From: Candidatus Doudnabacteria bacterium
GTDB lineage: Bacteria > Patescibacteriota > Doudnabacteria > UBA920
Length of the DNA stretch: 25,368 nt
Direction: 5' to 3'
NCBI GenBank assembly: GCA_023245895.1
Contig: JAHFJJ010000001.1
Location: 71,621-96,988 of the forward strand
The notes beneath the pieces were generated by a model. The model ran no database searches, was not told the origin of the DNA, and saw nothing but the letters and a program-made list of their open reading frames with translations. The translations under genes and the position numbers were made by a program. Position 1 is the stretch's first letter; every line of letters starts with the position of its first letter. Below, in pieces: positions 3,920 to 24,927 of this stretch.

Positions 3920-3947
3920 ATGTAGTGTTCTCAAATAAACAAATTTG

Positions 3948-4025
3948 GACAAATATACAAATCTTAATTATTTCCACAAATATACACAACCGACATTTGT
4001 ATATTTGTGTTGATTTGTATATTCG
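3948..4025. promoter_or_regulatory. cluster of four copies of the CAAATATACA half-site (two direct, two inverted): candidate operator/promoter for the yvcK-like operon
   Basis: Direct copies acaaatatacaa (3949-3960) and acaaatatacaca (3977-3989). Inverted copies tttgtatatttgtg (3996-4009) and tttgtatattcg (4014-4025). On the minus strand the cluster contains an extended -10-like TGTGTATATT. Confidence 0.35.
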
Positions 4026-4031
4026 CGATTA

Positions 4032-5315
4032 CTACTTAATTATTGCCATTTCCTTGCCCACCTCTTCAAAAGCCTTAACCGTACTGTCCATTTGCTCTTT
4101 GGTATGCGCTGATGATATTTGCACGCGAATCCTGGCCTTGCCCTTTGGCACTACAGGATAAGTGAACCCGCGGACGTAAATGCCTTTTTCAAAAAGCGCG
4201 CGGGCCATATTTGCCGCCAATTTTTCTTCAAACAACATCACGGGCGTAATCGCATGCTTACCGTCCCCTCCAAGTGTAAAGCCCAGCTTTTCCATTTCGC
4301 CCCTAAAATATTTGGTATTTTCTTCCAGCTGATTTCTATACTGCGCAAACTTGCTGTCAAAATTCTGTAATACATATAGGGCTGTGGCAGTAATCATAGG
4401 GGGCAAAGCATTGGAGAATAGTGTTGTACGAGAACGCTGATGGAGCACCTGGATTATTTCCTTCCTTCCGGCCGTAAAGCCTCCGCCCGCGCCGCCAAGG
4501 GCTTTTCCAAAAGTTGAAGTTAAAATATCTATCCTATCCATAACTCCGGCCTGTTCAATACTGCCACGGCCGTTCTTTCCCAGCACGCCGCTTGCATGGC
4601 TGTCGTCCACCATAACCAAAGCGCCGTACTTGTCGGCAAGGTCGCAAATTTCTTTGAGCTTGGCAGTAATGCCATCCATAGAAAACACGCCGTCTGTTGC
4701 AATCAATATCCGACGGGGCTTATATTTGCTCCCCTCTCCCCCCTTGTCCGCCATAGCTTTAGCGTCGGCGGATGGGAGAGGGGCCGGGGGTGAGGGTTTC
4801 TCTGGCCTCGATGTCGCCTCCTTTAACTGCCTTTCCAAGTCCCCCATATCCGAATTTTTAAACCTAAACCTTTCTGCCTTGCAAAGCCTAACGCCATCTA
4901 TAATAGAAGCATGATTCAACTCATCAGAAAAAATCGCATCCCCTTCCTTTAAAATAGTTTCAAACAAACCAGTGTTTGCGTCGAAACACGATGTATAACA
5001 AATGGCGTCTTCCTGCCCAAAAAACTTGGCAATTTCTTTTTCCAAATCTTTGTGCACAGTAAGCGTGCCGCAAATAAAACGTACGCTACCAGTACCATAC
5101 CCATATTTATCCAAAGCCTCTTTCGCGGCTCGGGTTAAATCATCGGATGATGCCAAACCTAGGTAGTTGTTGGCACAAAAGTTCAAAAGTGTCTTGTCGC
5201 CGACTTTAATTTCCGTCCCCTGTTTGCCTTCAATAACCCCTTCTTCTTTCCAGGTCCCTGCGTCCTTTATTTCTTTTAGTTCATCTTCAAATTGTTTTTG
5301 ATAGTTTGCGTACAT
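4032..5315 (-). CDS. kbl: 2-amino-3-ketobutyrate CoA ligase (glycine C-acetyltransferase)
   Basis: 427 aa. It aligns end to end with E. coli Kbl (NFCANNYLGL, VRFICGT, LIATDGVFSMDG, TFGKALGGAGGG, ARIRVQISSAHT). It carries a roughly 32-aa low-complexity insertion (RPEKPSPPAPLPSADAKAMADKGGEGSKYKP) that E. coli lacks. Confidence 0.92.
   Translation of the reverse strand: MYANYQKQFEDELKEIKDAGTWKEEGVIEGKQGTEIKVGDKTLLNFCANNYLGLASSDDLTRAAKEALDKYGYGTGSVRFICGTLTVHKDLEKEIAKFFGQEDAICYTSCFDANTGLFETILKEGDAIFSDELNHASIIDGVRLCKAERFRFKNSDMGDLERQLKEATSRPEKPSPPAPLPSADAKAMADKGGEGSKYKPRRILIATDGVFSMDGITAKLKEICDLADKYGALVMVDDSHASGVLGKNGRGSIEQAGVMDRIDILTSTFGKALGGAGGGFTAGRKEIIQVLHQRSRTTLFSNALPPMITATALYVLQNFDSKFAQYRNQLEENTKYFRGEMEKLGFTLGGDGKHAITPVMLFEEKLAANMARALFEKGIYVRGFTYPVVPKGKARIRVQISSAHTKEQMDSTVKAFEEVGKEMAIIK
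4729..4796. repeat. nested GC-rich palindromic element inserted in-frame in kbl
   Basis: The outer inverted repeat cccctctccc (4731-4740) / gggagagggg (4774-4783) is perfect. The inner pair tccgcc (4747-4752) / ggcgga (4767-4772) encloses the 14-nt loop atagctttagcgtc. The element coincides exactly with the extra peptide segment of Kbl. Confidence 0.55.
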
Positions 5316-5316
5316 A

Positions 5317-5949
5317 TTATTCCTTCATTTCCTGGACACGAAAAATATCTTCGTGCTCCAAGTCTATAAAACCTTCCCGGGTGAATACGGCTGCAATACC
5401 CTTTTCTTTTAATTCTCTAAAATATCTACTTAACAAACTGGCGGTTTCATTTTCTTCTTTATCAGGTGAAAGCAATTTTGCCTGACCTGATATTGTTGAC
5501 ATGAAATCTCTGGTTATTTTTTGCAGCAGCTCAATAGCTGAACTTTTTTGCTCCAAAGTTTGTGACTCCTTCAACTCAAAAATTGCCGGGATTGTGTAGC
5601 CGATACCCGGGGATTCGCCGGTAGCCATTTGCAGCTGATAAAATTTAAATTCCTGTAAAGTTTTTTTTCCAAGCCCGCTTTCCGGCTCTCCTGTTAGTGT
5701 TAAAGAAAAATCGCTTTCATGCTTACCCAACACTGTAAGTGAATCGTGGTTCCTGTATATGTCTTTGAGTACGGGCGGGCCCGCAGTACCGGCAACGAAC
5801 CCGCGGAATTCAATAAAAGAATCCGGGCCTGTCTTAAGGCTTAAGAGTTCTTCATATTGTTGTTTGCTTATGGTTGGGTAATTTTCCGCCTCCTCACTGA
5901 ACTCCCTGGAAATAGTCCGTTCAGCGCTATCTTGTTCAAACTCTTGCAT
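5317..5949 (-). CDS. hypothetical protein co-transcribed between the tdh-like gene and kbl
   Basis: 210-aa ORF with no recognisable motifs. Its stop is 1 nt from the kbl ATG and its start is 10 nt after the tdh stop. Confidence 0.55.
   Translation of the reverse strand: MQEFEQDSAERTISREFSEEAENYPTISKQQYEELLSLKTGPDSFIEFRGFVAGTAGPPVLKDIYRNHDSLTVLGKHESDFSLTLTGEPESGLGKKTLQEFKFYQLQMATGESPGIGYTIPAIFELKESQTLEQKSSAIELLQKITRDFMSTISGQAKLLSPDKEENETASLLSRYFRELKEKGIAAVFTREGFIDLEHEDIFRVQEMKE
5769..5789. repeat. GC-rich palindrome gtacgggcgggcccgcagtac inside the hypothetical gene
   Basis: A perfect 10-bp palindrome GCGGGCCCGC is flanked by inverted gtac. It encodes GTAGPPV and is far more GC-rich than the surrounding coding sequence. 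Confidence 0.35.
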
Positions 5950-5959
5950 ATAATTTAGG

Positions 5960-7219
5960 TTAAAATTGTATTAAAAACTTAGGGTGCTTTGCCATCATTT
6001 CCTCAAACCTTTCCTTAGTATACTCTTCTATAGGCAAAATTGTGTCTTGGCCTCTGTCTAAAATTACGTTGAATAATTTTTCCTGGACGCCGTTTTTCGT
6101 GTTTTCCATTAAAGAGCGGGTTGTTTCCCATGTCTGCCAAATTTGCCGGCCAATGACAGCGTGGAAAGTAAAACCGTTGACAATAAGGCGGTTAAAATCT
6201 TCAAACACAAAATCTCCCTGCTTAATCCCAAAAAGAACAACTTCCCCTCCCCTGCGCGTGGCATACAGGCAATTATTTACAGAGGAATTAAAACCGGCCA
6301 TTTCAAAACTAATGTCCACGCCCACGCCGTTGGTAATTTTTTTAATTTCGTCGGTGAGGGATGTGTCATGGATGTAGGGCAGGGCCTTGCCCTGCTTGTT
6401 GGGCAGGCCGGGGGCCTGCACTACATTATACAACGGGATGACATAATCTATTCCCAACTTCTTCGCCATATCCTGCGTAACCGGATTCGGGTCCACTCCT
6501 ATTATAGAGGAAGCGCCCATGCCTTTTAAAACAATGGTTAAAAACATGCCGATTGGGCCTAACCCAAATATGGCGACAGATTTTCCTTTAACATCCACTT
6601 TGCTTGCCGCGTGGACCGCGTTGCCAAACGGTTCCTGCATGGCCGCGACTTCGGGACGGATTTTGGAAGTGTCGGTCTTCCAGACAATATGGCTTGGAAC
6701 TTTTGCAAATTCCGCGAACCCGCCGTCATGGGAAATGCCTAATATCTTTTCATTGGTGCAGACTTCTTTTTGCCCACGCAAACACTGGTAGCACTTATTG
6801 CAAACCACGTGGGACTCGCAAGCCGCGAAGTCCCCGGGCTTTAAATTTTTTACTGCTGATCCGACTTTAATAATTTCGCCAAAAAATTCGTGGCCAATTA
6901 TGCGGTATGTTTTACTTGCTGAAACTGCGAGTGCGGCCGAAGCAGTCCCGTCTTGTTTCAAGATTGCTTCGCCTCCTGCACTCCTCGCAATTTCATCATC
7001 TTTATCTATGCTCCCCAAAATGACATCCCTAAAAGCCTGCCTGTTCCAAATGCCGCGGTCAGTCCCGCAAATGCCGGCGTAGTGGACTTTCATAATTACA
7101 TAATTGGCGTCACCAGGATTATTTTTTTCATCCAAAACCGGCTCGGGAATATTTACCAATTCAAACCCGTGCGATGTTTCCCAATCATATTTAGATTTAT
7201 CAAACACCAATGCTTTCAT
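5960..7219 (-). CDS. tdh: Zn-dependent medium-chain dehydrogenase, L-threonine 3-dehydrogenase-like
   Basis: 419 aa, with an MKAL start. It has the catalytic-Zn motif GICGTD and GHEFFGEI, the structural-Zn motif CESHVVCNKCYQC...C, the GLGPIG NAD motif and EPFGNAVHA. It is adjacent to kbl, as in tdh-kbl operons. It carries two insertions of roughly 35 aa and roughly 15 aa relative to E. coli Tdh. Confidence 0.72.
   Translation of the reverse strand: MKALVFDKSKYDWETSHGFELVNIPEPVLDEKNNPGDANYVIMKVHYAGICGTDRGIWNRQAFRDVILGSIDKDDEIARSAGGEAILKQDGTASAALAVSASKTYRIIGHEFFGEIIKVGSAVKNLKPGDFAACESHVVCNKCYQCLRGQKEVCTNEKILGISHDGGFAEFAKVPSHIVWKTDTSKIRPEVAAMQEPFGNAVHAASKVDVKGKSVAIFGLGPIGMFLTIVLKGMGASSIIGVDPNPVTQDMAKKLGIDYVIPLYNVVQAPGLPNKQGKALPYIHDTSLTDEIKKITNGVGVDISFEMAGFNSSVNNCLYATRRGGEVVLFGIKQGDFVFEDFNRLIVNGFTFHAVIGRQIWQTWETTRSLMENTKNGVQEKLFNVILDRGQDTILPIEEYTKERFEEMMAKHPKFLIQF
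6373..6425. repeat. nested GC-rich palindromic element inserted in-frame in the tdh-like gene
   Basis: The outer inverted repeat is tgtagggcagg / cctgcactaca. It encloses two 7-bp stem hairpins (gcagggc-ctt-gccctgc and gcaggcc-ggg-ggcctgc). It encodes VQAPGLPNKQGKALPY, which is absent from E. coli Tdh. Confidence 0.5.
6926..6989. repeat. second nested GC-rich palindromic element inserted in-frame in the tdh-like gene
   Basis: The outer pair is tgcgagtgc / gcactcctcgca and the inner pair is ggccgaagcag / ttgcttcgcc. The central palindrome is cttgtttcaag. The element encodes part of the roughly 35-aa insertion between the CGTD and GHE motifs. Confidence 0.5.
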
Positions 7220-7757: not shown

Positions 7758-9572
7758 TTACTCAACTGTAACGCTCTTAGCCAAATTCCTTGGTCTATCG
7801 ACATCCCGGCCTAATGCTACTGATACATGATAGGCAAATAACTGGAGCGGGATGGTATTTAAAAGCGGTTCAAGCAGTTCCATAGTTTTTGGCAAATAAA
7901 TAATTTCATCAGCAACCTCTTTTGCCTCTTCATCGCCTTGTGTCGCGATAATTAAAGTTCTGGCCCCGCGGGCGCGGACTTCCTGGATGCTACTTTTCAT
8001 TTTTTCATATAACTGGTTTTTGGTCAAAATAGCCACCACCGGTACGTCTTTGCTTACTAACGCAAGCGGCCCGTGCTTTAGCGCGCCGCCAGCCAAGCCT
8101 TCGGCGTGGATGTAGGAAATTTCCTCAAGCTTCAAAGCGCCTTCCAAAGCCACGGGGTAATTTACGCCCCTGCCAATGAATAAAATATTTTTGTAATCTT
8201 TATAGATGTTGGCAATTTTTTTAATTTCTTCGTTCTGCTTTAAAATTTCATTCATCTTTTCGCTAATTTCCAAAAGCGATTGCAACATCCTCTGTCCTGT
8301 GGCCAGTGAGGTATGCTTAAGGCGTCCAAATTGTAAAGCGTACAATAGTAGAACCGCTGTCATGTTTGTATAGGCTTTAGTAGATGCCACCGCAAGCTCC
8401 GGGCCGGCGTGGATGTAAGTGCCGGCGCCGGTCTCGCGCGCAATGGTTGAGCCCACAACATTTACAATTCCCCTAACCTGCCCGCCCTTTCTTTTGGCTT
8501 CGCGCGCGGCCATTAGCGTGTCGGCGGTTTCTCCGGATTGCGAAATTACAAAAACCAAAGTGTCTTTGTTTACAATCGGGTCGCGGTAGCGGAATTCGGA
8601 TGAAAAATCCACTTCGGTGGGGATGTTCGCCAAACGTTCAAAAGCGTATTTGCCAATAAGCCCGGCATGCCTGGCCGTGCCTTCGGCAATTATCATTATC
8701 CTTTTGACTTTCCGCATTTCTTCTTCGGTCAAATTAAGCCCGCCCATTTTTGCCGTGCCTTCTTCCATGTCTATCCTGCCCCTAAGCGCGTCTTCAAAAA
8801 CTTCTTTCTGGTCAAAAATTTCCTTGAGCATAAAATTCTCAAAACCGCCTTTTTGCGCCTTAGCCTGGTCCCAGTCTATTTCCGTAATATTTTTGCTGAT
8901 GACTTCATTACGCAAGTTAAAAATTTTCAATTCAGAATTGATGGATGCAATCTCACCGTCATCTAAAAAGGTCACGCGCTTGGTAAACGGCAGCATTGGC
9001 GTTACATCGGACGCGATATAAAATTCATTTTCACCAATACCCACGGCCAAAGGACTGCCTAAACGCGCGGCGACCAGCTGGTGCGGATGGTCTGCGTGCA
9101 TAACTACAAGCCCGTATGTACCCCGAATTCCGGGTAAGGCATCTTTTACCGCCTGCACTAAATCGCCTTTATAATTTTGGTAAATCCATTTGGCCAAAAC
9201 CTCCGTGTCGGTTTGCGATTCGTAATTTTTGTCTTGGATTTTTTCTTTCAACTCCCGGTAATTTTCAATTATGCCATTATGGACAATAGCCATTCTGCCA
9301 TCCACAATATGCGGATGTGCATTAAATTCTGTCACTCCCCCGTGGGTTGCCCAGCGTGTGTGCGCGACGCCAATTGTTCCCGGCAACTTCTTGCCTTCCA
9401 GTTTTTGCGATAGCTTGTCCACCTTGCCCACTTCCCTAACGCGATCGATTTTCCCATTATCCAAAACCGCCACGCCAGCGCTGTCGTAGCCTCTATATTC
9501 CAAATCGCGCAATCCTTGTAAAAGGATAGGCAAAACCTGTTTATTTCCAACGTATCCGACTATACCGCACAT
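7758..9572 (-). CDS. glmS: glutamine--fructose-6-phosphate aminotransferase (isomerising)
   Basis: 604 aa. It has the N-terminal MCGIVGYVG Ntn-amidotransferase start with the nucleophile Cys2, two SIS domains, and the C-terminal ...VTVE tail. It is full length relative to E. coli GlmS (609 aa). Confidence 0.97.
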   Translation of the reverse strand: MCGIVGYVGNKQVLPILLQGLRDLEYRGYDSAGVAVLDNGKIDRVREVGKVDKLSQKLEGKKLPGTIGVAHTRWATHGGVTEFNAHPHIVDGRMAIVHNGIIENYRELKEKIQDKNYESQTDTEVLAKWIYQNYKGDLVQAVKDALPGIRGTYGLVVMHADHPHQLVAARLGSPLAVGIGENEFYIASDVTPMLPFTKRVTFLDDGEIASINSELKIFNLRNEVISKNITEIDWDQAKAQKGGFENFMLKEIFDQKEVFEDALRGRIDMEEGTAKMGGLNLTEEEMRKVKRIMIIAEGTARHAGLIGKYAFERLANIPTEVDFSSEFRYRDPIVNKDTLVFVISQSGETADTLMAAREAKRKGGQVRGIVNVVGSTIARETGAGTYIHAGPELAVASTKAYTNMTAVLLLYALQFGRLKHTSLATGQRMLQSLLEISEKMNEILKQNEEIKKIANIYKDYKNILFIGRGVNYPVALEGALKLEEISYIHAEGLAGGALKHGPLALVSKDVPVVAILTKNQLYEKMKSSIQEVRARGARTLIIATQGDEEAKEVADEIIYLPKTMELLEPLLNTIPLQLFAYHVSVALGRDVDRPRNLAKSVTVE

Positions 9573-12629: not shown

Positions 12630-15600
12630 GTGAGAAACAATTCTAAAATAAAACACAATTTCAGAGCCGGGACTTTTAAAGTTTCATATAGTCCGTTTTT
12701 TAGATTAGGCCTGTTTTTAATGGTCTTTGTTATGCTGTTTCATATCAATCCACAGCAGGCCCAAGCAGCCAATTACACGTTTAGCCAATCCAGCTGGAGC
12801 GGTGGAACAACATCAAGCACAATGGTCCACCCGACTAACGAAACCGGCTGGACGCAGTATTCCACCAGTACCAATATTACCGCGGGCTCAACTATTACTC
12901 TCAATTCAAGCTTTGGAGCAGGCGGCTGGTACTCGACCGGAGGTACTTGGACTTACAGGAAAAAGATAACCATAGACCACACTAAAGTCAGCGGATCGAG
13001 CGCGCTGACTAATTTCCCAATGTTGTTTAACGTAACAGATTCGGATTTAAAATACACAGGCAGCGGAGGCGGGGTCGGCACTACATCTGGAAATGATATT
13101 TTATTTACTTCGTCAGACGGAACAACGCTTTTGAATTATGAAATAGAAAGCTACGCTTCCACTACCGGAGCTACCGCCGCCTGGGTTAATATTCCTTCCC
13201 TCTCCCCGACAACCGACACGACTATTTATATGTACTACGGTAATGCTTCAGCGGCGGCGGAAAGCGCCGGCAACATTACCGGCACTTGGGATTCCAATTT
13301 TAAAGGCGTATGGCACTTTCCCAGCACCACGACCTTGGGCGCTAATGATTCAACCAGCAACGCCAATAATGGATCTTCAACAACTACTACCGCCTCTACC
13401 GGCAAGATTGCTGGAAGCGCGAGTTTTAACGGCTCGGCTTTTATTTCCGTCGGCACCGGCTCGTCTTTGAATATTACTTCCCAGCCCGTTACTGTTTCAT
13501 CCTGGGTCAAACCAAGCAGCCAGCCTCCGACTTTCCAGATGATCTTTGATAAAGATGCTTCATACGCTTTTTTTCTCGACAGCAACAGCCCCCCAACAAA
13601 TTCTCTGGGGTTTAGGTCTAACATTAACGGGTCGATTGTTTACGCAAACAATAATATTATAACCACAGGCAGCTGGCAGCATGTAGCGGCAGTTTACGCT
13701 TCAAACACAGTTTCTTTTTACGTTAACGGCAGCCTGGCTTCAACCACAGCACTTTCAAACGCCTTTTCGTCTAACTCAAACGCGGCGGAAATTGGAAGGA
13801 GATTTACTAACGAACAGTTCTTTAATGGTGATATGGATGAAGTTAGGGTATCCTCTGCCGCCCGTTCCGCCGACTGGATTGCCACGGAATACGCCAACCA
13901 AAATTCGCCGTCAACTTTTCTTTCCGAAGCCTCGGCCGTAACTAATGTAAAAATGCTGGTTTCTTCGCCTTACGATTCCGGCAGTTCTAATAATATTTTA
14001 AACCAGGTTACCTGGACTGAAGATTCAACTTTGCCGGCCAATACTTCCGTGACCCTGGCCCTGCGCACGGGCAGTTCCACAACCACACTGGCCGCGGCAA
14101 GCTGGACCAATATTGCCACCAGCACGCCTTCCACCCTGACTTCCAACTGCAGCAAGGCTTCCGCGACAATTACCTGCAGCGCCGGCGCCATTGCCTCTTC
14201 TCTCAAAGACGGGTCCGGCGACGAATGGTTCCAGTACGCCGTAATTCTTAACAGCAGCGACGGAGTCTACACGCCCACAATTAGCGCGGTATCCGTGCAG
14301 TATGTGGTCAATGGCCCGCCGGATTTTAATTCCAACTACCCAACCGCCAGCGCCGGCGGAGTCTATGCTTACCAAAACGCGACCACCACAGACTCAAGTT
14401 TTGGCAAGGTAATAATCCAATACAGCGTTAGGGATACGGACTCAACCTCGGGCAACAGCACGCCCGGATATGTTACGCCTTCTTTCCAGTACAACATTGG
14501 CGGCAGCTGGACCAGCATAACTTCGGGCTACCTGGCATCTGGCGATTTGAACAACAAAGCCGTAAGCGAGTCCAGCTACACGACTTACCAGGCGACCTGG
14601 GACGCGAAAAGCCAAATCCCTACCAATTACCTGGCGACCGCGCAGGTAAGGGTGACTGTGAATGATAATGAGCTTGCGGGCAACACTGCCACACAAGCCT
14701 CAGCTAACTTTACCTTAGATACAACAAACCCTTCGGCCAGTATTCGTTTAGATGCCAGCAGCAACATAATTTATTCCACCTCAACCGACAGCAGCATTGT
14801 TTCATACTTGCTATCCAACAATTCCACCGGCACGCCCGATTCCTTAAATGCCATAAGCGGCATTTGGCAGTCTGCAAGCAGCACTTCGGTATCAACCTCT
14901 ACTGCCTGGACTTTTGCTTCAACCACTTATCCCACAGTCTACTTCCAGGCCCGCGACGCATACAATAACGGCGCCAGTACTACCGCGGTAGCCCCTTACG
15001 CGCCGACCAACATGGACATAAAAGATATTAGCAATACGGCTACAGGCGTGTACAGGGAATTTATTTCCTGGGGGGTTTATTCCGCAACTTCAAGCGCGGC
15101 CTTTTCCAAATATGAAATTTACCGTTCCACGGATGCCAGCAGCTATTCCCTGCTTAGCACAATTATTGACTCCTCCCTTAATTACTACGCCGACTCGGCG
15201 GTGGCCACTAGCAGCACTTATTACTACAAAATAAGAACGGTAGATACCGACACTGACAACTCCCCCTATTCTTCGGTTGTCAGCGATAAACCGGACGGCC
15301 AGGGCGGGACAGACATAACTGCCCCAACCATAAGCTCGGTAACCGTGGCGCAAACCCAGTCAACCTGGGCAACCATTACCTGGACCACGGATGAGCTGTC
15401 CAACTCCACGGTAGGATATTCCACGACTGCGGGCAGCTGGACATCAAGCCAGTCCTCAACCTCATTTTTGCTTAGCCATTCGGTGACAGTCTCCGGGCTT
15501 TTGCCAAATACCACCTACTACTTTAGGGTCCAGTCCTCGGACATTGTGGGCAACACGGCTACTGACAACAACGGCGGCAACGGATACAGTTTTACAACTG

Positions 15601-17591
15601 CCGGCGGTCCGACTATTTCCAATACCAGCGTTTCCGCGCAGGCCACCGGCGCTTCCATAACCTGGAATACGGACCGCAGTTCTGACTCCTACGTATATTA
15701 CTCCACCAATTCCAACCTTAGCTCGCCGCAAGTAGCCGGTAACGCGGCTTTGGTGTCAACAAGTTCAACTCCTTCAGTATTCCAGCATAGAGTCGACCTA
15801 ACAGGCTTGTCCGCGGCCACAACTTATTATTTCTACGTTAAATCCACGGACGGCAACAGCAATTCTTCCACGGACACCAATAACGGCAGTTACTATTCTT
15901 TCCGAACCGTGCTCGATACCCAGGCGCCGGTTATTTCGGGAATTTCAACGCCGGTAATTTCATCCACGGCCGCGGTAGTAGTATGGACTACGGACGAGCC
16001 GGCTACTTCAAGAGTTTCCCTGGGCACGGCTACCGGCAGCTACTCAACCAGCACTCCCGTTGACTCCACCTTAACCATAACCCATGTGGTCGCGCTCTCC
16101 GGTTTAACCGCCTCAACCAAATATTATTTCGTGGCCACTTCCCAGGACCAGGCGGGTAACTCCACCACCTCGGCCGAAAACACTTTTACTTCCGCCGATG
16201 CCAACGATATAATTTATATAGGCAGCGGGGGCGCGAGTGCCGGAGGCACAACCTCCGATATTACCCCGCCTGTCATTAGCAGCATTAAAACAGGAACGAC
16301 CACAGCCTTTAGCGTGACGGTTAGCTTCTCTACCAACGAATCGGCTGTTGGAATTGTTCAGTACGGGACTAGCGACAAATACGGCCAGTCAGGCGCTGAA
16401 TCAAGCTTTACTTCCACCCACAACATTAGCCTTACCGGCCTGCGCATGGGAACCAAATATCATTTTAAAGTTGTCGCCCTGGACAAAGCCGGCAACGAGG
16501 CTGATTCTGTAGACGGAACCTTTGAAACACAATTCTTGAGCGATGACTTAAGCAGCATAAATATCGATGACTTATACCAGTACCAGGAAGAAATTGAAAA
16601 CCAAATTGAATCAATCCTTCCCTCTATAGTCCCGCCGTTTATCGGCAAAGTAGCCATAAGTAACGTAAGCCAGGATTCAGCCGACATTTCCTGGCAGACT
16701 AACCTGAAAGCCTACTCCTCGGTTCAGTACGCTTCTGAAAACGACTACAATAAAGACAGCGAAAAGCCGTACCCAAGCGAAAGCGGCGACATTACCACCA
16801 AAGCCACCAACCATAGCCTAACTTTAACCGGGCTGACTCCCAACACCGTTTACCATTTTCGCGTTAAAGCCTACACCCTGCCCAAAGCCTCAAGCTCAAG
16901 CAAAGATATTTCTTTTACCACCAAGGCCGAGGATATTAAAGCCCACATTGCCGAGGTAAAAATCGATTCCTTCCGGGTGGTTTGGAGTACTGCAGACGCT
17001 TCAGATGCGGTAGTGGAATATAAAAATTTGAGCAACGGGCAGGTTAACCGTAAAGTAGATGAGCAAAAAAAGATTTTCCATGAAGTCACAATAGACAAAT
17101 TACCGTCCGGAACGACTTTTTTGGTAAAAGTTTCCAGCATCAACAATAAAGGCAACTTAACTGAAAATAAAGTGCCGCTTAAGGTAACTACCGGCACGGA
17201 CAACAACGCCCCCACAATTTCAGGACTGAAAATAGAAAGCACTTTGGTGCCGGGTAAACAAGACAAAGTCAGCACTTTAATCCGCTGGAACACGGATGAA
17301 CCGGCCAGTTCGGCTGTCTACTACGAAGAAGGCAGCGGCGCCCCTACCAACCAACACCTGGCCAATAAGGCTGTAGGCGACCAAAATGCTTTTGTAACCG
17401 ACCATGTGGTAGTGCTCGGCTCGCTGAAAGCCGGAGCTATTTACCGCATCCAGGTTGAATCCAGCGACTCGGCCGGCAACCTTACTGCGCCGACTATAAA
17501 AACCATTGTCGTGCCAAGACAAAGCCAATCGGTAACTGATATTATCTTTAAAAACTTTGAAGATTCCTTTAAGTTCCTAAACACGAAATAA
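12630..17591 (+). CDS. giant secreted/cell-surface protein: signal peptide, DUF2341-like domain, LamG/ConA-like lectin domain, Ig-like region, then about seven FN3/PAP-N-like repeats
   Basis: 1653 aa with a GTG start. It has a Sec-type signal (K/R-rich n-region, LGLFLMVFVMLF, AQA|AN). Residues 108-215 resemble DUF2341 (WTYRKKITIDHTKV...TTIYMYYGN). Residues 245-430 resemble LamG (WQHVAAVY...SFYVNGSL...FNGDMDEVRVSSAARSADWI). It has repeated ITWTTDE..S.V.Y....YYFRV.S.D..GN modules, an S/T/N-rich composition and many N-x-S/T sequons. Minus-strand ORFs inside it are spurious. Confidence 0.9.
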   Translation: MRNNSKIKHNFRAGTFKVSYSPFFRLGLFLMVFVMLFHINPQQAQAANYTFSQSSWSGGTTSSTMVHPTNETGWTQYSTSTNITAGSTITLNSSFGAGGWYSTGGTWTYRKKITIDHTKVSGSSALTNFPMLFNVTDSDLKYTGSGGGVGTTSGNDILFTSSDGTTLLNYEIESYASTTGATAAWVNIPSLSPTTDTTIYMYYGNASAAAESAGNITGTWDSNFKGVWHFPSTTTLGANDSTSNANNGSSTTTTASTGKIAGSASFNGSAFISVGTGSSLNITSQPVTVSSWVKPSSQPPTFQMIFDKDASYAFFLDSNSPPTNSLGFRSNINGSIVYANNNIITTGSWQHVAAVYASNTVSFYVNGSLASTTALSNAFSSNSNAAEIGRRFTNEQFFNGDMDEVRVSSAARSADWIATEYANQNSPSTFLSEASAVTNVKMLVSSPYDSGSSNNILNQVTWTEDSTLPANTSVTLALRTGSSTTTLAAASWTNIATSTPSTLTSNCSKASATITCSAGAIASSLKDGSGDEWFQYAVILNSSDGVYTPTISAVSVQYVVNGPPDFNSNYPTASAGGVYAYQNATTTDSSFGKVIIQYSVRDTDSTSGNSTPGYVTPSFQYNIGGSWTSITSGYLASGDLNNKAVSESSYTTYQATWDAKSQIPTNYLATAQVRVTVNDNELAGNTATQASANFTLDTTNPSASIRLDASSNIIYSTSTDSSIVSYLLSNNSTGTPDSLNAISGIWQSASSTSVSTSTAWTFASTTYPTVYFQARDAYNNGASTTAVAPYAPTNMDIKDISNTATGVYREFISWGVYSATSSAAFSKYEIYRSTDASSYSLLSTIIDSSLNYYADSAVATSSTYYYKIRTVDTDTDNSPYSSVVSDKPDGQGGTDITAPTISSVTVAQTQSTWATITWTTDELSNSTVGYSTTAGSWTSSQSSTSFLLSHSVTVSGLLPNTTYYFRVQSSDIVGNTATDNNGGNGYSFTTAGGPTISNTSVSAQATGASITWNTDRSSDSYVYYSTNSNLSSPQVAGNAALVSTSSTPSVFQHRVDLTGLSAATTYYFYVKSTDGNSNSSTDTNNGSYYSFRTVLDTQAPVISGISTPVISSTAAVVVWTTDEPATSRVSLGTATGSYSTSTPVDSTLTITHVVALSGLTASTKYYFVATSQDQAGNSTTSAENTFTSADANDIIYIGSGGASAGGTTSDITPPVISSIKTGTTTAFSVTVSFSTNESAVGIVQYGTSDKYGQSGAESSFTSTHNISLTGLRMGTKYHFKVVALDKAGNEADSVDGTFETQFLSDDLSSINIDDLYQYQEEIENQIESILPSIVPPFIGKVAISNVSQDSADISWQTNLKAYSSVQYASENDYNKDSEKPYPSESGDITTKATNHSLTLTGLTPNTVYHFRVKAYTLPKASSSSKDISFTTKAEDIKAHIAEVKIDSFRVVWSTADASDAVVEYKNLSNGQVNRKVDEQKKIFHEVTIDKLPSGTTFLVKVSSINNKGNLTENKVPLKVTTGTDNNAPTISGLKIESTLVPGKQDKVSTLIRWNTDEPASSAVYYEEGSGAPTNQHLANKAVGDQNAFVTDHVVVLGSLKAGAIYRIQVESSDSAGNLTAPTIKTIVVPRQSQSVTDIIFKNFEDSFKFLNTK

Positions 17592-17603
17592 AGAACCCTC
17601 CAA

Positions 17604-17637
17604 ATTCCCCCCGCCGATGGCAGGGGGAATTTTTTTG
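17604..17637 (+). terminator. rho-independent terminator of the giant gene
   Basis: The stem attccccccgcc/ggcagggggaat is followed by TTTTTTT. Confidence 0.7.
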
Positions 17638-17663
17638 TAAGAATGCTTTATTTTTGCTATATT
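17635..17663 (+). promoter_or_regulatory. putative promoter (TTGTAA-17 nt-TATATT) for the receiver/ABC operon
   Basis: TTGTAA at 17635-17640, a 17-nt spacer, and TATATT at 17658-17663. The ATG is at 17692. Confidence 0.35.
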
Positions 17664-17691
17664 TATAGAAGACTAATCCAAACAATCCCAA

Positions 17692-18126
17692 ATGAAACAA
17701 ATAAAAATTTTGATGGTGGACGAAAATGAAATTATGCGGTTTTACTTCCGCGACTCTTTCTGGCTGCATAGCGAACGGGACGAGTATGAATTGAGGTTTG
17801 CCAGTGATTTTGTCCAGGCACAGCAGATATTGCGGGAACCGGAAACATTTTTTGACATTATATTCCTGGATTTAGTTTTGCATATTACCCACAAAAACCG
17901 CTTGGTTCTGGACCCGGAAGCGGGCCTAAAGCTAATTGCCCAAATCCGCTCCATGCCTAAATTTAAAAATACCAAAATAGTAGTATTTTCTTCCAAGCAA
18001 TATTTCCATTTGTGGAAAAAAGCCAAAAAGCTGGGCGCTAACTTTTTCCTTAAAAGCGAAGAATACCTGCCCCGTTACCTGGTAAAATGGGTAGAAAAAA
18101 TCTTTAAAGAGAAATCCGCGCAATGA
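17692..18126 (+). CDS. stand-alone CheY-like receiver-domain protein (single-domain response regulator)
   Basis: 144 aa with the receiver signature positions: an acidic pair (VDEN), the phospho-acceptor Asp (IIFLDLVL), S (VVFSS) and K (FFLKS). It has no output domain. Its stop overlaps the ATPase start (ATGA). Confidence 0.75.
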   Translation: MKQIKILMVDENEIMRFYFRDSFWLHSERDEYELRFASDFVQAQQILREPETFFDIIFLDLVLHITHKNRLVLDPEAGLKLIAQIRSMPKFKNTKIVVFSSKQYFHLWKKAKKLGANFFLKSEEYLPRYLVKWVEKIFKEKSAQ

Positions 18127-19433
18127 ACACAATAATAGAATTAAAGCACGTCAATTTTTGGTACGACCGCGGCAAACCCACGGAAATGCAGGCTTTGCAC
18201 GACATTAATTTACAAATTGGCCAGGGAGAATATGTGGCTTTTTTCGGCCCTTCCGGCAGCGGCAAAACCACCCTGCTGTATTTGCTTTCAGGAACGGAAA
18301 TGTCCCAGGAAGGCGAAGTTATGGTCAACGGCAAAGACATTAGCAAACTGTCCAAAAGAGAAATGGCCATTTACCGGCAAATCGGGGTGGGCATGGTTTT
18401 CCAGCAGTTCAACCTTATTCCCAATTTAACCATACTGGAGAATGTCGGCTTGCCCATGGCTTTTTTAGGCGTTGGCGAAGACAAAAGAATAAAAGAAGCC
18501 AAGCTGCTGCTGGAACGGCTTAACCTGTCTGCCCTTGCCAAACGTTTTCCATATGAACTTTCCGGCGGACAGCAACAGAGAGTCGGCATAGCGCGCGCGC
18601 TGGCCAACAATGCGCCGATTATTGTCGCCGATGAGCCTATTGGCAACCTGGATTCCACCAACGCCAACAACGTGCTGGATTTTTTAAAGGAACTTTGTGA
18701 AAAGGACGGCAAAACTGTGGTTATGGTTACCCACGAAGCCTGGAGCTTAAGAGACGCCAAAAAAATCTTTTACCTGAAAGACGGCGTGGTGGAAAAAGTT
18801 GAAACCAACCACGCCAAACCGGCAACGCAAATCCTGGCGGAACAGCTATATAAACAAACAGCTCCCAAGCGGGCGCAGGAGTCCAAAGAACGGGCGGTGG
18901 CCAGCACCCTGGCCAATGTGCTTTTTCGCGGTTTTTCGGCTGAAGAAAACATGCGTTTCAGCGACTTTCTAACACAGCGCTTAACGGGACAAGTGGACCA
19001 GGTACAATTCCTAGAATTGCTCTATAAGCCTTTCCGCGAGGGCGGCGGAGGTTTGTGGAAAAAACGGGCGCTGGAAACCTCGCGCTACGTTGAAGGGATT
19101 ATCCAGGAGCATATGGACGTGGAAGGAATATGCCTGGAGCTGGAAAAAAATCCAACGGCTCCCCTGCTTCACGAAATTGGCAGTTTAATGGAATGGCTTT
19201 TAGACAGGAATAAAATCCGGCTGGATCAGCTACAGGAAAGCCGCTTCCGCCAAGTTACCACAGAAGTCCTCCGCAACGCTATTAAGCTGGAAGCCTTTAA
19301 AGAAGCGCTGTATTTGCCAAAGTCAAAACTGGGCGTGGGGCTGTCGCATAGGACAACTGAAAGAATTTATGAAAAATTTAAACTTGCTTTGGGTAATTTT
19401 GAACTTGAACCGCTCTCGCCTGAAAAAGCCTAA
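18123..19433 (+). CDS. MacB/LolD-type ABC transporter ATP-binding protein with a roughly 200-aa C-terminal extension of unknown function
   Basis: It has Walker A (GPSGSGKTT), the ABC signature (LSGGQQQRVGIARAL), Walker B (IIVADEPIGNLD) and an H-loop (VTHE). Residues from about 230 to 436 have no recognisable motif. Confidence 0.88.
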   Translation: MNTIIELKHVNFWYDRGKPTEMQALHDINLQIGQGEYVAFFGPSGSGKTTLLYLLSGTEMSQEGEVMVNGKDISKLSKREMAIYRQIGVGMVFQQFNLIPNLTILENVGLPMAFLGVGEDKRIKEAKLLLERLNLSALAKRFPYELSGGQQQRVGIARALANNAPIIVADEPIGNLDSTNANNVLDFLKELCEKDGKTVVMVTHEAWSLRDAKKIFYLKDGVVEKVETNHAKPATQILAEQLYKQTAPKRAQESKERAVASTLANVLFRGFSAEENMRFSDFLTQRLTGQVDQVQFLELLYKPFREGGGGLWKKRALETSRYVEGIIQEHMDVEGICLELEKNPTAPLLHEIGSLMEWLLDRNKIRLDQLQESRFRQVTTEVLRNAIKLEAFKEALYLPKSKLGVGLSHRTTERIYEKFKLALGNFELEPLSPEKA

Positions 19434-19437
19434 TAAT

Positions 19438-19598
19438 GGGTCTTCTGCCGAATGTCATTTTGACTGCAATTTCAAAATTTCGGCCATTCGACCCAAAAAA
19501 TTTATCCGCTTAACTAAAGTTAAACATCAAAATTTATTTGTGCCGACTGTCTCGAAATTTTGAAATTTCGTTACAAAAGCACATTCGGCAGAAGACCC
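19438..19598. repeat. 161-bp near-perfect inverted-repeat element (MITE-like or structured RNA) filling the ATPase-permease intergenic region
   Basis: The terminal 18-bp inverted repeat gggtcttctgccgaatgt (19438-19455) / acattcggcagaagaccc (19581-19598) is perfect. The inner 15-bp pair is aatttcaaaatttcg / cgaaattttgaaatt. The tip hairpin is ttaac-taaa-gttaa. The element ends 5 nt before the permease ATG. Confidence 0.6.
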
Positions 19599-19603
19599 AT
19601 ACA

Positions 19604-20809
19604 ATGAACAACCACCTAAGCCCTTTTGACCTTATAAAACTCTCCACCAGAGTCTTTTTCGTCAAGCCAACACGAACGCTTTTGACTATTTTAGGGACTT
19701 CTGTCGGCATTAGCGCGGTGGTATTTTTAGTTTCCCTGGGCTACGGCTTCCAGTACCTGCTTTTAGGCAAACTGGTTACAACCGAAGATTCTTTAATTAC
19801 GCTGGCGGCTTCCTACCCCAGTGAAAGCGGAGCGGTAATTTATCCCAAAACAATAGAGGAAATGGGCAAGCTGCCCGGGGCGTCGGAAACCAGCAGCATG
19901 GCTGAATTTTCGGGCGAAATTGACTACGAAAAATTAAGCGGGCTAATCTTGGTTAGAGAAGTAGAACCCAGCTACTTTCGGCTTTCCGGCTTTAACCCGG
20001 ACATTGGACAGGCGCCATCGGAAAAAAAGCCGGGCTTAGTGCTTACTAACCAGGCTTTGCGCCTGCTTAACTTAGCAGATGACCAAAATATCCTCGGCAA
20101 ACAAGCCGGTATAAAAGTTTATTATCAAAGCCAGGACCAAAGCCAGCCCAGCGAAGCAAACGCCTCTTCGCCCCTGCCCATTGTCGGCATAATCACCGAC
20201 GAGAACGAGCCTCCGGTAGTCTACGTTCTGGCTTCTTCCATTTCACAAGCGCCGCCTTTTTTTAAGGAGCTCTTACTTAAGGCTGACAAAATCGACAATG
20301 TAGAACCCCTTAGGGAAAAATTAAGCGACAAAGGATTTTTAATTTCTGCCAAGCTTGACTTGGTCACACAGGCCAGAAAAATTTTAAACGCGATTACCAT
20401 TGTGCTGGCTGTGTTCGGGATTACCGCCCTGGTGGTTTCCGCCATTGGCATGTTTAACACTATGATCGTGGGCTTTTTGGAAAGGATTTATGAGGTCGGG
20501 GTCATGAAGTCTTTAGGCGCCACCGATAGCGACGTGCGGAACCTATTTTTGATGGAATCCCTGCTCATGGGCCTTTGCGGCGGCATAGCGGGCGTAGCCA
20601 TTGGCATTGGGGCGGGCAAACTGCTAAATTTTGGCCTCAATGTGCTTGCCTCCCGCCTAGGAGGCAAAGCTTTAGAGCTCTTTATTACCCCTTGGTGGTT
20701 TATAGGTTTAATCTTGGCAACCTCGGCTTCCATTGGCCTGATTGCCGGTTTTTGGCCGGCCCACCGCGCTTCGACGCTTTCTCCCAAAGAAGCATTTTTG
20801 AGGAAATAA
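19604..20809 (+). CDS. ABC transporter permease, MacB/FtsX family
   Basis: It has an N-terminal TM (LLTILGTSVGISAVVFLVSLGYGF), a large periplasmic domain, and a C-terminal FtsX-type four-helix region (MKSLGATDSDVRNLFLMESLLMGLCGGIAGV...). The ATG at 19604 is preferred over the ORF-track start at 19538, which lies inside the inverted-repeat element. Confidence 0.85.
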   Translation: MNNHLSPFDLIKLSTRVFFVKPTRTLLTILGTSVGISAVVFLVSLGYGFQYLLLGKLVTTEDSLITLAASYPSESGAVIYPKTIEEMGKLPGASETSSMAEFSGEIDYEKLSGLILVREVEPSYFRLSGFNPDIGQAPSEKKPGLVLTNQALRLLNLADDQNILGKQAGIKVYYQSQDQSQPSEANASSPLPIVGIITDENEPPVVYVLASSISQAPPFFKELLLKADKIDNVEPLREKLSDKGFLISAKLDLVTQARKILNAITIVLAVFGITALVVSAIGMFNTMIVGFLERIYEVGVMKSLGATDSDVRNLFLMESLLMGLCGGIAGVAIGIGAGKLLNFGLNVLASRLGGKALELFITPWWFIGLILATSASIGLIAGFWPAHRASTLSPKEAFLRK

Positions 20810-21717: not shown

Positions 21718-22569
21718 CACATATTCTTCTGTCACCAGAAGTGCAGACTATATCTTCATCCTATCTTATACCTTAGGCTCCTGGGCCATAGTATTTTTTT
21801 ATGATAGGTGTCGGCGTATTATAGAAATAGTAGAAAGTATAAAGTTGAAAGTTTAAAGTAACTGCAATTGCAGTCCTTTTCACTTTCTACTTTTAACTTT
21901 TAACTACCTTCCATCTCCTCTTTCGAGTCAGTCGTTACGGGGTCAAACCTAAAATCTTAAATAATTCAAGTCCGGTTTTCTTTTTCCGAGTTGCGTAGTT
22001 ATTATTTTGAATTATTGTTATACAGCTTATAATTTTCCTGAGTTCAGATTGCGTAAAATTAGCAATCTTTTTCCCTTCCAGAATTCCGGCTGCTTTATAC
22101 AAAGCCGCAGCTTGTTGCTTCTTAAAACGTATAAATGGAATTAAATCTTTAAGAATGTTTTTAATTTGAGTCACCCCGTTTATACGAAGTTCGCTCATTC
22201 CGTCATTTCTGCGGGATAAGTACCCAATGCCTAAAACTTTCTTAATCCAGAAAAGTTCTGCTTCATGGCGGCTATCCTGATAAAAACAGATAGTGCACAT
22301 AAAACGAACTTTTTTCTTTCCATCTTTGCGCTTTTTGATTTGCAACATTAAGCTGCCGTCTCCGTCTAAAAAGCCGGCAATATAAGCTAAATCAATTTTA
22401 GATCGACTTCCCACGGTATTGTCTTAATATTCTTGGTCCTCAAGTAAATTGTACCATAACTGAAGAACCGTTACAATTATGGTTATCAACGGATGCAAAA
22501 TATATTAAGATTTCACCGTTATTAGCCGAATTTTCAAGGCAGATTACTCTGCCAAGTAGCAAACCCTTT
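21718..22569 (-). other. intron (group I-like, 852 nt) inserted in the 23S sarcin-ricin loop (E. coli U2656/A2657 equivalent)
   Basis: The 5' exon ends ...GCGCAUCCCUAGU (22570). The 3' exon starts ACGAGAGGACCGGGAU (21717). Joined, they restore the universal SRL CCUAGUACGAGAGGACC closed by the AUCCC/GGGAU stem. The intron starts with A after an exonic U and ends in G. Confidence 0.7.
21935..22414 (-). CDS. LAGLIDADG homing endonuclease (single-motif) encoded in the SRL intron
   Basis: It has the LAYIAGFLDGDGS motif near its N-terminus. It is 159 aa with a GTG start, and lies entirely within the intron. Confidence 0.85.
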   Translation of the reverse strand: MGSRSKIDLAYIAGFLDGDGSLMLQIKKRKDGKKKVRFMCTICFYQDSRHEAELFWIKKVLGIGYLSRRNDGMSELRINGVTQIKNILKDLIPFIRFKKQQAAALYKAAGILEGKKIANFTQSELRKIISCITIIQNNNYATRKKKTGLELFKILGLTP

Positions 22570-23308: not shown

Positions 23309-24044
23309 CATAATGTTAGCTTCATGTTTCCATGAAGTTCAGACTATATCATTCCATCAATTGGATGGATTCGGCGTTTAGTCGTTGAGGGTTTTTACTA
23401 AATGATTCTTTAAAATTTGTTAAATTATGCTTTCGAGTTCTACCTTTTCCTTCATTTAAGTCCTCACGAAGTTTTACTATTTCTAGCAACCCTTCCTGAT
23501 TTAAATGTTGGCTTGCAAAAACTAATCTTGCAATTTTAGAGAATAACGAATAGTTTCTTTTTTTACTAGCGGACAAGAAACCGAACCGGTCAAAGAAAGG
23601 AATTATTTTTTCTTTGAGTGCTGTATGATTTTGGACAATATATTGATGCACGCCATCTTTCCTATGGTCAATGCGACCACAGCCTAAATGATGCTTCAAC
23701 AAAGCAAGTACGGTAATGTCTTTTTGAGCAACATTAAACGTTAATATTACTTGCCATAATACTTTACTGTCGTTTCGTTTACGAAGGGAAACATTAAAGC
23801 TTCCTTCTCCGTCTACAAAACCTGCAAAGTAATTTCCAATTTCAACAGGAATTTGCTTTAACCAATTTTGATCCATAAAGTTTCCTTCTGAATCTTTTAG
23901 TAAATCTTCCCTGCGGATTGACTGTATCTTGTAAATTTTTACTGTCAATTTAATGACGAGTATTACAAGCTTTAAGCACATCAAAGTCCTTTGTGTGCAC
24001 AGTTATTCCCGCAAATAGCCAAATTTTATAACTACAACATGTTC
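23309..24044 (-). other. group I-like intron (736 nt) in 23S helix 69 at the L1917-equivalent site
   Basis: The 5' exon ends ...GGCAGUAACUAU (U at 24045). The 3' exon starts AACUGUCCUAUGGUAGCGAAAUUCC (23308). Joined, they give the H69 loop UAACUAUAAC. The intron ends in G. The junction can slide by 3-4 nt because of the local repeat gaac...gaac. Confidence 0.65.
23349..23984 (-). CDS. LAGLIDADG homing endonuclease (single-motif) encoded in the L1917 intron
   Basis: It has the NYFAGFVDGEGSF motif. The likely true start is the internal Met at 23876 (MDQNWLKQIPVEIGNYFAGF...). The longer N-terminal extension probably reads through intron core sequence. Confidence 0.85.
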   Translation of the reverse strand: MMCLKLVILVIKLTVKIYKIQSIRREDLLKDSEGNFMDQNWLKQIPVEIGNYFAGFVDGEGSFNVSLRKRNDSKVLWQVILTFNVAQKDITVLALLKHHLGCGRIDHRKDGVHQYIVQNHTALKEKIIPFFDRFGFLSASKKRNYSLFSKIARLVFASQHLNQEGLLEIVKLREDLNEGKGRTRKHNLTNFKESFSKNPQRLNAESIQLME

Positions 24045-24814: not shown

Positions 24815-24927
24815 CTTATGCGAAGCATAAGAACAATTAACTTTTAACAATTAACAATTGACCGGCTGCAGACTGCAGTAGTTAATCGTTAATCGTTAAT
24901 TGTTACCAGTTTTTATGCTTCGCATAA
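24815..24927 (-). repeat. 113-nt hairpin expansion segment in 23S (replacing the short helix after the GTPase-associated centre), built of tandem 7-10-nt repeats
   Basis: The base palindromes are cttatgcgaagcataag and tttatgcttcgcataaa. Tandem aacaattaac copies pair with tandem gttaatc copies around the central palindrome ctgcagactgcag. E. coli has only GCGGCAGCGACGCUUAUGCGUUGUUGGGUAG at this position. Confidence 0.5.

Follow-up and report, generated by a model that had tools for sequence, protein, structure and literature searches.

The window analysed here is a 25,368-nt stretch of a Candidatus Doudnabacteria genome (assembly GCA_023245895.1, contig JAHFJJ010000001.1, positions 71,621 to 96,988), in which an imperfect palindrome of 165 nt lies between the gene for the ATPase and that for the permease of a MacB-type ABC transporter. 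On a modest balance of probability, we read this palindrome as a foldback element resembling a MITE (miniature inverted-repeat transposable element) that inserted at the coupled ATPase-permease junction in one uncultivated lineage of Patescibacteria (Parcubacteria group), where it is calculated to mask the permease start.

The ATPase-permease junction in related lineages

The junction was read in seven related lineages with permeases 60-74% identical. The two genes overlap or nearly abut in six of them, with gaps of -4 nt (74% permease identity; a JGI contig, from its gene table only), 0 nt (67%; L021, where the TAA abuts the ATG), -14 nt (65%; L004), +11 nt (63%; L006, Liptonbacteria), -4 nt (62%; L018) and +1 nt (60%; L019). 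The synteny of giant fn3 protein, response-regulator-like protein, ATPase and permease is kept. The remaining lineage (73%; L003) has a gap of +117 nt made of unrelated sequence, and the window has one of +170 nt between the reading frames. By parsimony across these junctions, the ancestral state is one of abutting or overlapping genes, and the palindrome is a derived insertion restricted, among the lineages compared, to the source lineage. The C-terminus of the ATPase and the N-terminus of the permease are intact and align with their relatives at the normal positions; the insert left both reading frames intact.

A preliminary description of the locus had offered two readings, a MITE landed between normally adjacent or overlapping genes or an RNA structure that sets the ATPase:permease stoichiometry, and had named the junction in relatives as a place to look. 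The comparison agrees with the first reading as far as insertion is concerned, since the element is absent from all seven lineages and the gaps of -14 to +11 nt in six of them stand against +170 nt in the window; the MITE label is not thereby established. The remark that the element exactly fills the gap is an automatic consequence once the genes abut ancestrally.

The 117-nt spacer of L003 (5884-6000) holds a palindrome of its own. It folds as one long imperfect hairpin (-48.5 kcal/mol, z = -5.1), and the palindromic part (5884-5987), GC-richer than the window element, starts at the stop codon and stops 13 nt short of the ATG. Homology of the two palindromes was rejected, their global alignment being no better than that of shuffled sequences (z = -0.25). 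The window permease is 73% identical to that of L003 and 74% to that of the JGI relative, and the latter two are 69% identical to each other. Unrelated palindromes in roughly equidistant lineages imply that the same junction was occupied independently twice.

Anatomy of the element

The features of the element and of the flanking genes are collected in Table 1. A repeat search pairs the outermost arms (19436-19462 and 19574-19600) over 27 nt at 93%. The palindrome begins 2 nt after the ATPase stop codon and finishes 3 nt before the permease ATG, so placed that its right terminal repeat occupies mRNA positions -23 to -4 relative to the permease start. Inside it lies a 161-bp core (19438-19598) bordered by AT on both sides, which ends in an 18-nt terminal repeat, GGGTCTTCTGCCGAATGT, at 19438-19455 on the forward and 19581-19598 on the reverse strand. 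At up to 3 mismatches this repeat has just these two matches in the 25-kb window, against a chance expectation of 0.03.

The preliminary description was right about the 18-bp perfect terminal repeat, the 15-bp inner repeat and the tip hairpin, and the perfect terminal match extends to 20 bp. Its spacing of 5 nt on either side of the core holds for the permease ATG, the distance to the ATPase stop being 4 nt. The term near-perfect suits the ends; the arms as a whole align with 69 matches, 8 mismatches and about 6 indels, and blastn gives the palindrome 78.6% identity to its own reverse complement.

Table 1. Coordinates in the window of the foldback element, its parts and the two genes that flank it
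Feature	Position	Strand	Detail or evidence
ABC-transporter ATPase, 436 aa	18123..19433	+	Stop TAA 19431-19433; ABC_tran domain residues 25-173
Whole foldback element	19436..19600		Inverted repeats, fold, missing in relatives
Left terminal inverted repeat, 20 bp perfect	19436..19455		ATGGGTCTTCTGCCGAATGT; 50% GC; repeat search, fold
Inner inverted repeat, left arm	19468..19482		AATTTCAAAATTTCG; 15/15 match
Tip hairpin, 5-bp stem TTAAC/GTTAA, 4-nt loop	19510..19523		Stem 19510-19514 / 19519-19523; fold
Inner inverted repeat, right arm	19553..19567		CGAAATTTTGAAATT; 15/15 match
Right terminal inverted repeat, 20 bp perfect	19581..19600		ACATTCGGCAGAAGACCCAT; repeat search, fold
MacB/FtsX-type permease, 401 aa	19604..20809	+	ATG 19604-19606; MacB_PCD and FtsX domains

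The element has a GC content of 36% (44% in the window), with ends of 50% and a core of 32%. Its interior has accumulated about 0.22 changes per position between the arms, a rate at which 20 clean terminal positions are expected with P of about 0.007; the termini are thus significantly better preserved than the interior. The longest open frame inside the element has 41 codons.

RNA folding

On the sense strand the minimum-energy fold has 65 pairs and -65.8 kcal/mol, compared with -27.1 ± 3.6 kcal/mol for dinucleotide shuffles (z = -10.7; none of 200 shuffles folds as stably). The fold consists of a perfect 20-bp basal helix, a perfect 15-bp inner helix, several short helices and a 5-bp tip. 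The antisense strand folds at -78.7 kcal/mol (z -10.9), which is 13 kcal/mol better than the sense strand. The 8 mismatches between the arms comprise 6 transversions and, on the sense strand, 2 A·C and no G·U; the antisense strand folds better because the two sense A·C mismatches read as G·U there.

On the transcribed strand the stem is followed by ACAAUGAAC, with no U-tract, and a scan for terminator-like and promoter-like sites within 19436-19600 returned none. An intrinsic terminator or attenuator was rejected on these grounds. No Rfam family was matched at gathering score, the only hits being plant miRNA-precursor hairpin models at 14-43 bits, for which gathering scores are 80-195. A conserved cis-regulatory RNA of any Rfam family was likewise rejected, as the structure is also missing in the relatives. 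The element is not a conserved RNA, and nothing indicates upkeep of the helix in the sense RNA over and above the pairing that comes with a DNA palindrome.

Predicted effect on permease translation

The preliminary description noted that the permease lacks a Shine-Dalgarno (SD) sequence. This is correct and not distinctive, since 15 of the 17 genes in the window start without even a 4-nt SD core, behind leaders that are mostly A/T-rich, and the permease starts of five relatives likewise have none. With SD sequences so scarce, how accessible the start region is would count for most. What sets the window permease apart is the calculated cost of opening its start. Positions -20 to +13 in free mRNA require 29.2 kcal/mol, compared with 1.3-15.9 kcal/mol (median about 8) for the other 16 genes and 3.4 kcal/mol in a reconstructed empty site. 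For the shorter interval from -12 to +13 the cost is 16.2 kcal/mol in free mRNA and falls to 4.0-2.9 kcal/mol when a ribosome stands on the ATPase stop codon and covers 12-15 nt downstream of it, because the right arm then loses its pairing partner. In the fold, 5 unpaired nucleotides at the helix base lie between stop and start codon.

These energies make it very probable that the hairpin alters permease translation as a side-effect of the insertion. The most economical reading of the calculation is that permease translation would now depend on ATPase translation through unmasking of the start. Overlapping and abutting genes have been linked to termination-reinitiation coupling and are enriched among subunits of heteromeric complexes (PMC10666635).

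Two published experiments stand against preserved coupling. A linear spacer of about 20 nt nearly abolishes termination-reinitiation (PMC10666635), and a stable hairpin directly after the stop codon insulates against re-initiation in E. coli (PMC7518266). Both predict that coupling was lost and not kept, the rescue by unmasking being a calculated one, and taken together they imply that the net effect may be a lower permease output.

Under the favoured reading of a MITE-like insertion, the history of the locus could be as follows. A non-coding foldback element of about 161-165 bp, with GC-richer perfect ends and an AT-rich, partly decayed core, would have entered this lineage alone, at the few-nucleotide ATPase/permease junction of a MacB-type ABC transporter operon. 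As it carries no promoter and no terminator tail, the element is most probably co-transcribed, and the transcript would fold as a hairpin of about 65 bp based between the ATPase stop and the permease start. Since this hairpin would enclose positions -4 to -23 of the permease start, and the genome depends on leaders free of structure and not on SD sequences, free 30S initiation would be strongly disfavoured. Ribosomes finishing the ATPase may melt the stem base and expose the permease start, so that some coupling would survive, probably at a lower yield. By analogy with the Correia elements of Neisseria, the long perfect helix of 20 bp is also a plausible RNase III substrate.

Copy number and mobility

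Bacterial MITEs are small elements in which terminal inverted repeats flank a non-coding core and which form a long RNA stem-loop (Delihas 2011, PMC3184786). The element shares this anatomy: it is 165 bp long (below 200 bp), has no transposase gene, carries terminal inverted repeats around a non-coding core, forms a long stem-loop as RNA, and is intergenic and AT-rich. It is so far an orphan representative of a known class, the small palindromic insertion elements, and probably what remains of a small mobile element. On this anatomy it is a candidate MITE, a class whose defining property is the presence of multiple copies. From the MITEs described in PMC3184786 it differs in that no second copy, cognate insertion sequence (IS) or transposase, or scorable target duplication was found, and in being palindromic throughout and not at its ends alone.

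Several results weigh against a mobile origin. Neither the window nor a further 3.4 kb of the same genome yielded a second copy. The same-genome sequence searched amounts to 28.8 kb (the 25.4-kb window plus 3.4 kb to its left, from contig L020), at most about 3-5% of a genome taken, by estimate, as roughly 1 Mb, so that a low copy number is compatible with the result. The exact 18-nt repeat has 4 matches in 185,579 GTDB species genomes, 7 in JGI metagenomes and none in IMG/VR, and all 11 are lone, unpaired matches of 18-22 nt in unrelated, mostly high-GC contexts. The window copy itself was not returned, which places the source genome outside the GTDB, JGI and IMG/VR collections scanned. A blastn search of PLSDB plasmids and INPHARED phages in distant mode gave nothing, and sensitive blastn against the window and all retrieved loci gave no further match. 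The six-frame peptides of the element (concatenated), which offered a route into ENA/Logan assemblies, matched none of 5.8 billion protein clusters at E ≤ 10. No transposase or IS with matching ends was found by an exact 18-mer scan, which misses diverged repeats. The sole adjacent direct repeat is AT...AT (19436-37 and 19599-600); because it is self-complementary, a 2-bp target-site duplication is indistinguishable from a longer terminal repeat. A reconstructed empty site that retains one AT gives a plausible spacer of 7 nt.

No paper on MITEs in Patescibacteria came up in a literature search, and a search for the terminal-repeat sequence led only to an unrelated biosensor paper.

Long palindromes occur at three gene junctions in this material, namely the one described here, window 3920-4031 and L003 5884-5987, and each is unique. 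Three unique junction palindromes could point to an origin other than transposition, which also counts against the reading that we favour.

The palindrome at window 3920-4031 (sense strand -) fills the 112-nt gap between the stop codon of an aminotransferase gene (4034-4032) and the ATG of a CofD/YvcK-like gene (3919), and is unrelated to the element. Its arms (3919-3962 and 3995-4038) match over 44 nt at 77%, and it folds at -33.7 kcal/mol (z -4.6) with the stop codon in the stem base and the ATG 3 nt past the stem, the same geometry as at the ATPase-permease junction. A 77% relative (L023) has another upstream gene at this place and an unstructured spacer of 145 nt.

On L020, about 2-3 kb outside the left edge of the window in the same genome, a PaaX-like regulator gene lies between two perfect palindromes of 34 and 36 nt (8329-8362 and 8912-8947), which are similar to each other and share the core TTCACGGCCGTGAA. 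Operators are one possible identity for them and a short repeat of REP-like type another; the motif does not occur in the window.

Alternative explanations

The palindrome may have arisen locally and without transposition, for example from a short piece of foreign or slipped DNA that was captured and inversely duplicated through template switching or hairpin-primed repair, its middle decaying afterwards. The effects on the mRNA would be the same. The single detectable copy, the palindromic organization over the full length and not at the ends alone, the want of an unambiguous target-site duplication, and the other junction palindromes of unique sequence (window 3920-4031 and, at this very junction, L003), none of them alike, all agree with such an origin. 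However, neither arm resembles local sequence and there was no ancestral spacer to duplicate, so that foreign DNA is required even here. The 20-bp ends, perfect and richer in GC than the decayed AT-rich core between them, have the look of functional terminal repeats, MITEs of low copy number or without kin are common, and the searches covered a small fraction of the source genome. We regard a local origin as unlikely.

A cis-regulatory RNA of any origin, retained by selection and acting as an RNase III site, a barrier to 3'-exonucleases or a translational insulator that lowers permease output relative to that of the ATPase, would account for the long hairpins acquired independently by two sister lineages at this exact junction, for the perfect match between the arms at the stem base and for the strongly masked permease start codon. 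It also has precedents in REP elements (as summarized in PMC3184786), in the CREE hairpins bound or cut by RNase III (PMC2649163) and in insulation by ribosome termination structures (RTS; PMC7518266). Against it, six of the seven related lineages, one of the two closest among them, have no such hairpin, those of the window and L003 are not homologous (z = -0.25), and no homologues of the hairpin were found. Its sense-strand mismatches are not of the G·U type, the antisense strand folds better, and there is neither an Rfam match nor a terminator tail.

MacB-type transporters contain equal numbers of ATPase and permease subunits, so that a device for unequal output, or for less permease, has no obvious benefit. 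The ancestral overlap of the genes likewise argues for equal output (PMC10666635). A selected RNA of this kind is improbable in our view. The stoichiometry device of the preliminary description is not supported, as the closest relatives lack the structure and no Rfam match, terminator tail or sense-strand wobble bias was found. The same description held that a single copy together with a structure conserved in distant relatives would speak for a regulatory RNA; no second copy was found, and the structure is not conserved.

Although palindromic junctions are a known class of artefact where metagenomes have been amplified or mis-assembled, the probability that this one was produced in assembly or amplification, for instance by a chimeric inverted join, is negligible, because the same 165 nt recur in the same context on at least two other, independently assembled ENA contigs from different samples, a third ENA contig has an equal 170-nt gap (its DNA was not read), the palindrome is imperfect and has indels, and the flanking genes are intact and in register. 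The identical copies across independent assemblies show the element to be real.

Variation within the population amounts to 2 single-nucleotide polymorphisms in 5 kb, with none in the element and no empty site; the element is fixed in the sampled population. This population is almost clonal, and its polymorphism is for that reason uninformative on constraint or mobility. At another place, window 6142-6344 and L020 16-218 differ at 47 positions in about 200 nt, mostly with a 3-nt spacing, in an alcohol-dehydrogenase-like gene. The other 6.1 kb or so of the overlap between the window and L020 are identical, which suggests a second strain or a recombinant or chimeric contig end.

Comparison with known elements

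The Correia repeat-enclosed elements (CREE/NEMIS) are 153-157 bp long, have terminal inverted repeats of about 20-26 bp and occur in 100 to more than 250 copies, in Neisseria only (PMC2649163). They are often co-transcribed, and their RNA hairpin is a substrate of RNase III, with a post-transcriptional change of expression; a 26-bp Correia repeat is defined for them, and they are able to give rise to promoters and to bind IHF (PMC2649163). The element is like them in size (161-165 bp) and in the length of its terminal repeat, a resemblance of size and likely mode of action only. Unlike them, it is single copy, of unrelated sequence, from another phylum and without a promoter-like site. Membership in the Correia family, compared by description, is implausible; among the 185,579 species genomes, the 18-nt terminus had chance matches only, none of them in Neisseria. 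By analogy, the element would work most like a co-transcribed MITE of the Correia/NEMIS or ERIC type.

By position it is like REP/BIME, a palindrome outside the coding sequence that sits between two cistrons of an ABC transporter operon; the malE-malF intercistronic region is another REP/BIME case in such an operon. A REP between the cistrons of an ABC transport operon (hisJ-hisQ) can, according to the summary in PMC3184786, shift their relative expression via mRNA stability (Higgins 1982 and Stern 1988, cited there). REPs are GC-rich, 21-65 bp long, present in hundreds of copies and associated with RAYT transposases, and a REPIN consists of two inverted REPs (PMC3184786). In contrast, the element is an orphan of 165 bp with 36% GC and a terminal repeat that is not itself palindromic. 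Furthermore, REPs typically part the strongly expressed gene of a binding protein from those of the membrane components, whereas the element parts an ATPase from a permease. Membership in REP, BIME or REPIN was rejected on size, GC content, the non-palindromic terminal repeat and the single copy. Overall, the element belongs to none of the CREE/NEMIS, ERIC and REP families, from which its sequence, host, copy number or size sets it apart.

RTS are stable mRNA structures right after a stop codon; their signal is centred about 5 nt downstream, and across the genome a folding window averages about -8 kcal/mol (Chemla et al. 2020, PMC7518266). They are short local structures, a statistical feature of many genes, enriched at gaps of 25 nt or more (PMC7518266). 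The element agrees with their positional definition, as its stem begins 2 nt after the TAA in a gap of 170 nt, and an insulator role is predicted from this. It differs in being a single hairpin of 65 bp and -66 kcal/mol, made by insertion, whose 3' arm holds the initiation region of the next gene.

An integron attC site was also considered and rejected. The ends of the element read ATGGGTC ... GACCCAT and not RYYYAAC ... GTTRRRY, the sole GCTTAAC/GTTAAAC-like motifs lie 4 nt apart at the hairpin tip, and the flanks are a conserved operon and not cassettes.

Genomic context and other features of the window

Upstream of the ATPase, a 144-aa response-regulator-like gene overlaps it by 4 nt and is itself preceded by the gene of a 1653-aa fn3-rich surface protein. 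The C-terminal half of the ATPase matches no Pfam family. Patescibacteria (Liptonbacteria, Doudnabacteria and the Parcubacteria group) account for all of the top permease homologues.

The whole module of surface protein, response-regulator-like protein, ATPase and permease (window 12630-20809) is common to genomes of the Parcubacteria group (L003-L006, L018 and L019). Its surface proteins are rich in fn3 and purple-acid-phosphatase-N domains and range from 1338 to more than 2500 aa, its small response-regulator-like protein is missing in L004 and L018, and its ABC ATPases have 425-444 aa overall, with a C-terminal extension of about 200 aa without a family.

Downstream, on the opposite strand, lie the 5S and 23S rRNA genes with open reading frames (ORFs) for LAGLIDADG homing endonucleases (21935-22414, 159 aa, and 23349-23984, 211 aa, both on the - strand). 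Each ORF adjoins or overlaps a sub-threshold match to group I introns (30 and 36 bits, gathering score 50; regions 21725-22414 and 23320-23984). One interrupts the 23S rRNA, and the other sits in the stretch, unusually long at 1431 nt, that separates the 3' end of the 23S gene (22523) from the 5S gene (21091). The 23S region also contains a 112-nt palindrome (24816-24927) with arms of 47 nt at 81%, rich in AATTAAC/GTTAAT, which may be an expansion of an rRNA hairpin or an insertion and matches only a generic miRNA-hairpin model.

Implications for compact genomes

In the plainest case, the element is an ordinary, probably near-neutral insertion, chiefly relevant to the annotation of this operon. 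As a doubtful but broader suggestion, junctions of coupled genes may be safe harbours for palindromic insertions in the gene-dense, SD-less genomes of Patescibacteria, the hairpin preserving coupling and with it roughly 1:1 subunits. A full-length hairpin would fold the insert aside, and the terminating ribosome would melt its base and hand over to the masked start; the junction palindromes in the window, in L003 and at window 3920-4031 would then be recurrent outcomes of this filter. If so, coupling would survive an insertion of 170 nt, although a linear spacer of that length abolishes it. A by-product of this suggestion would be a MITE-like element family, the first to be described from Patescibacteria.

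If the reading as a MITE-like insertion is correct, the element would give a first look at small non-autonomous elements in the very compact genomes of Patescibacteria. The operon would also provide a natural experiment, in which three lineages at roughly equal distance (permeases 69-74% identical) have the same genes joined by a 4-nt overlap, a 117-nt palindrome or a 170-nt palindrome, and would allow one to ask whether a hairpin can replace proximity in the translational coupling of a nearly SD-free organism.

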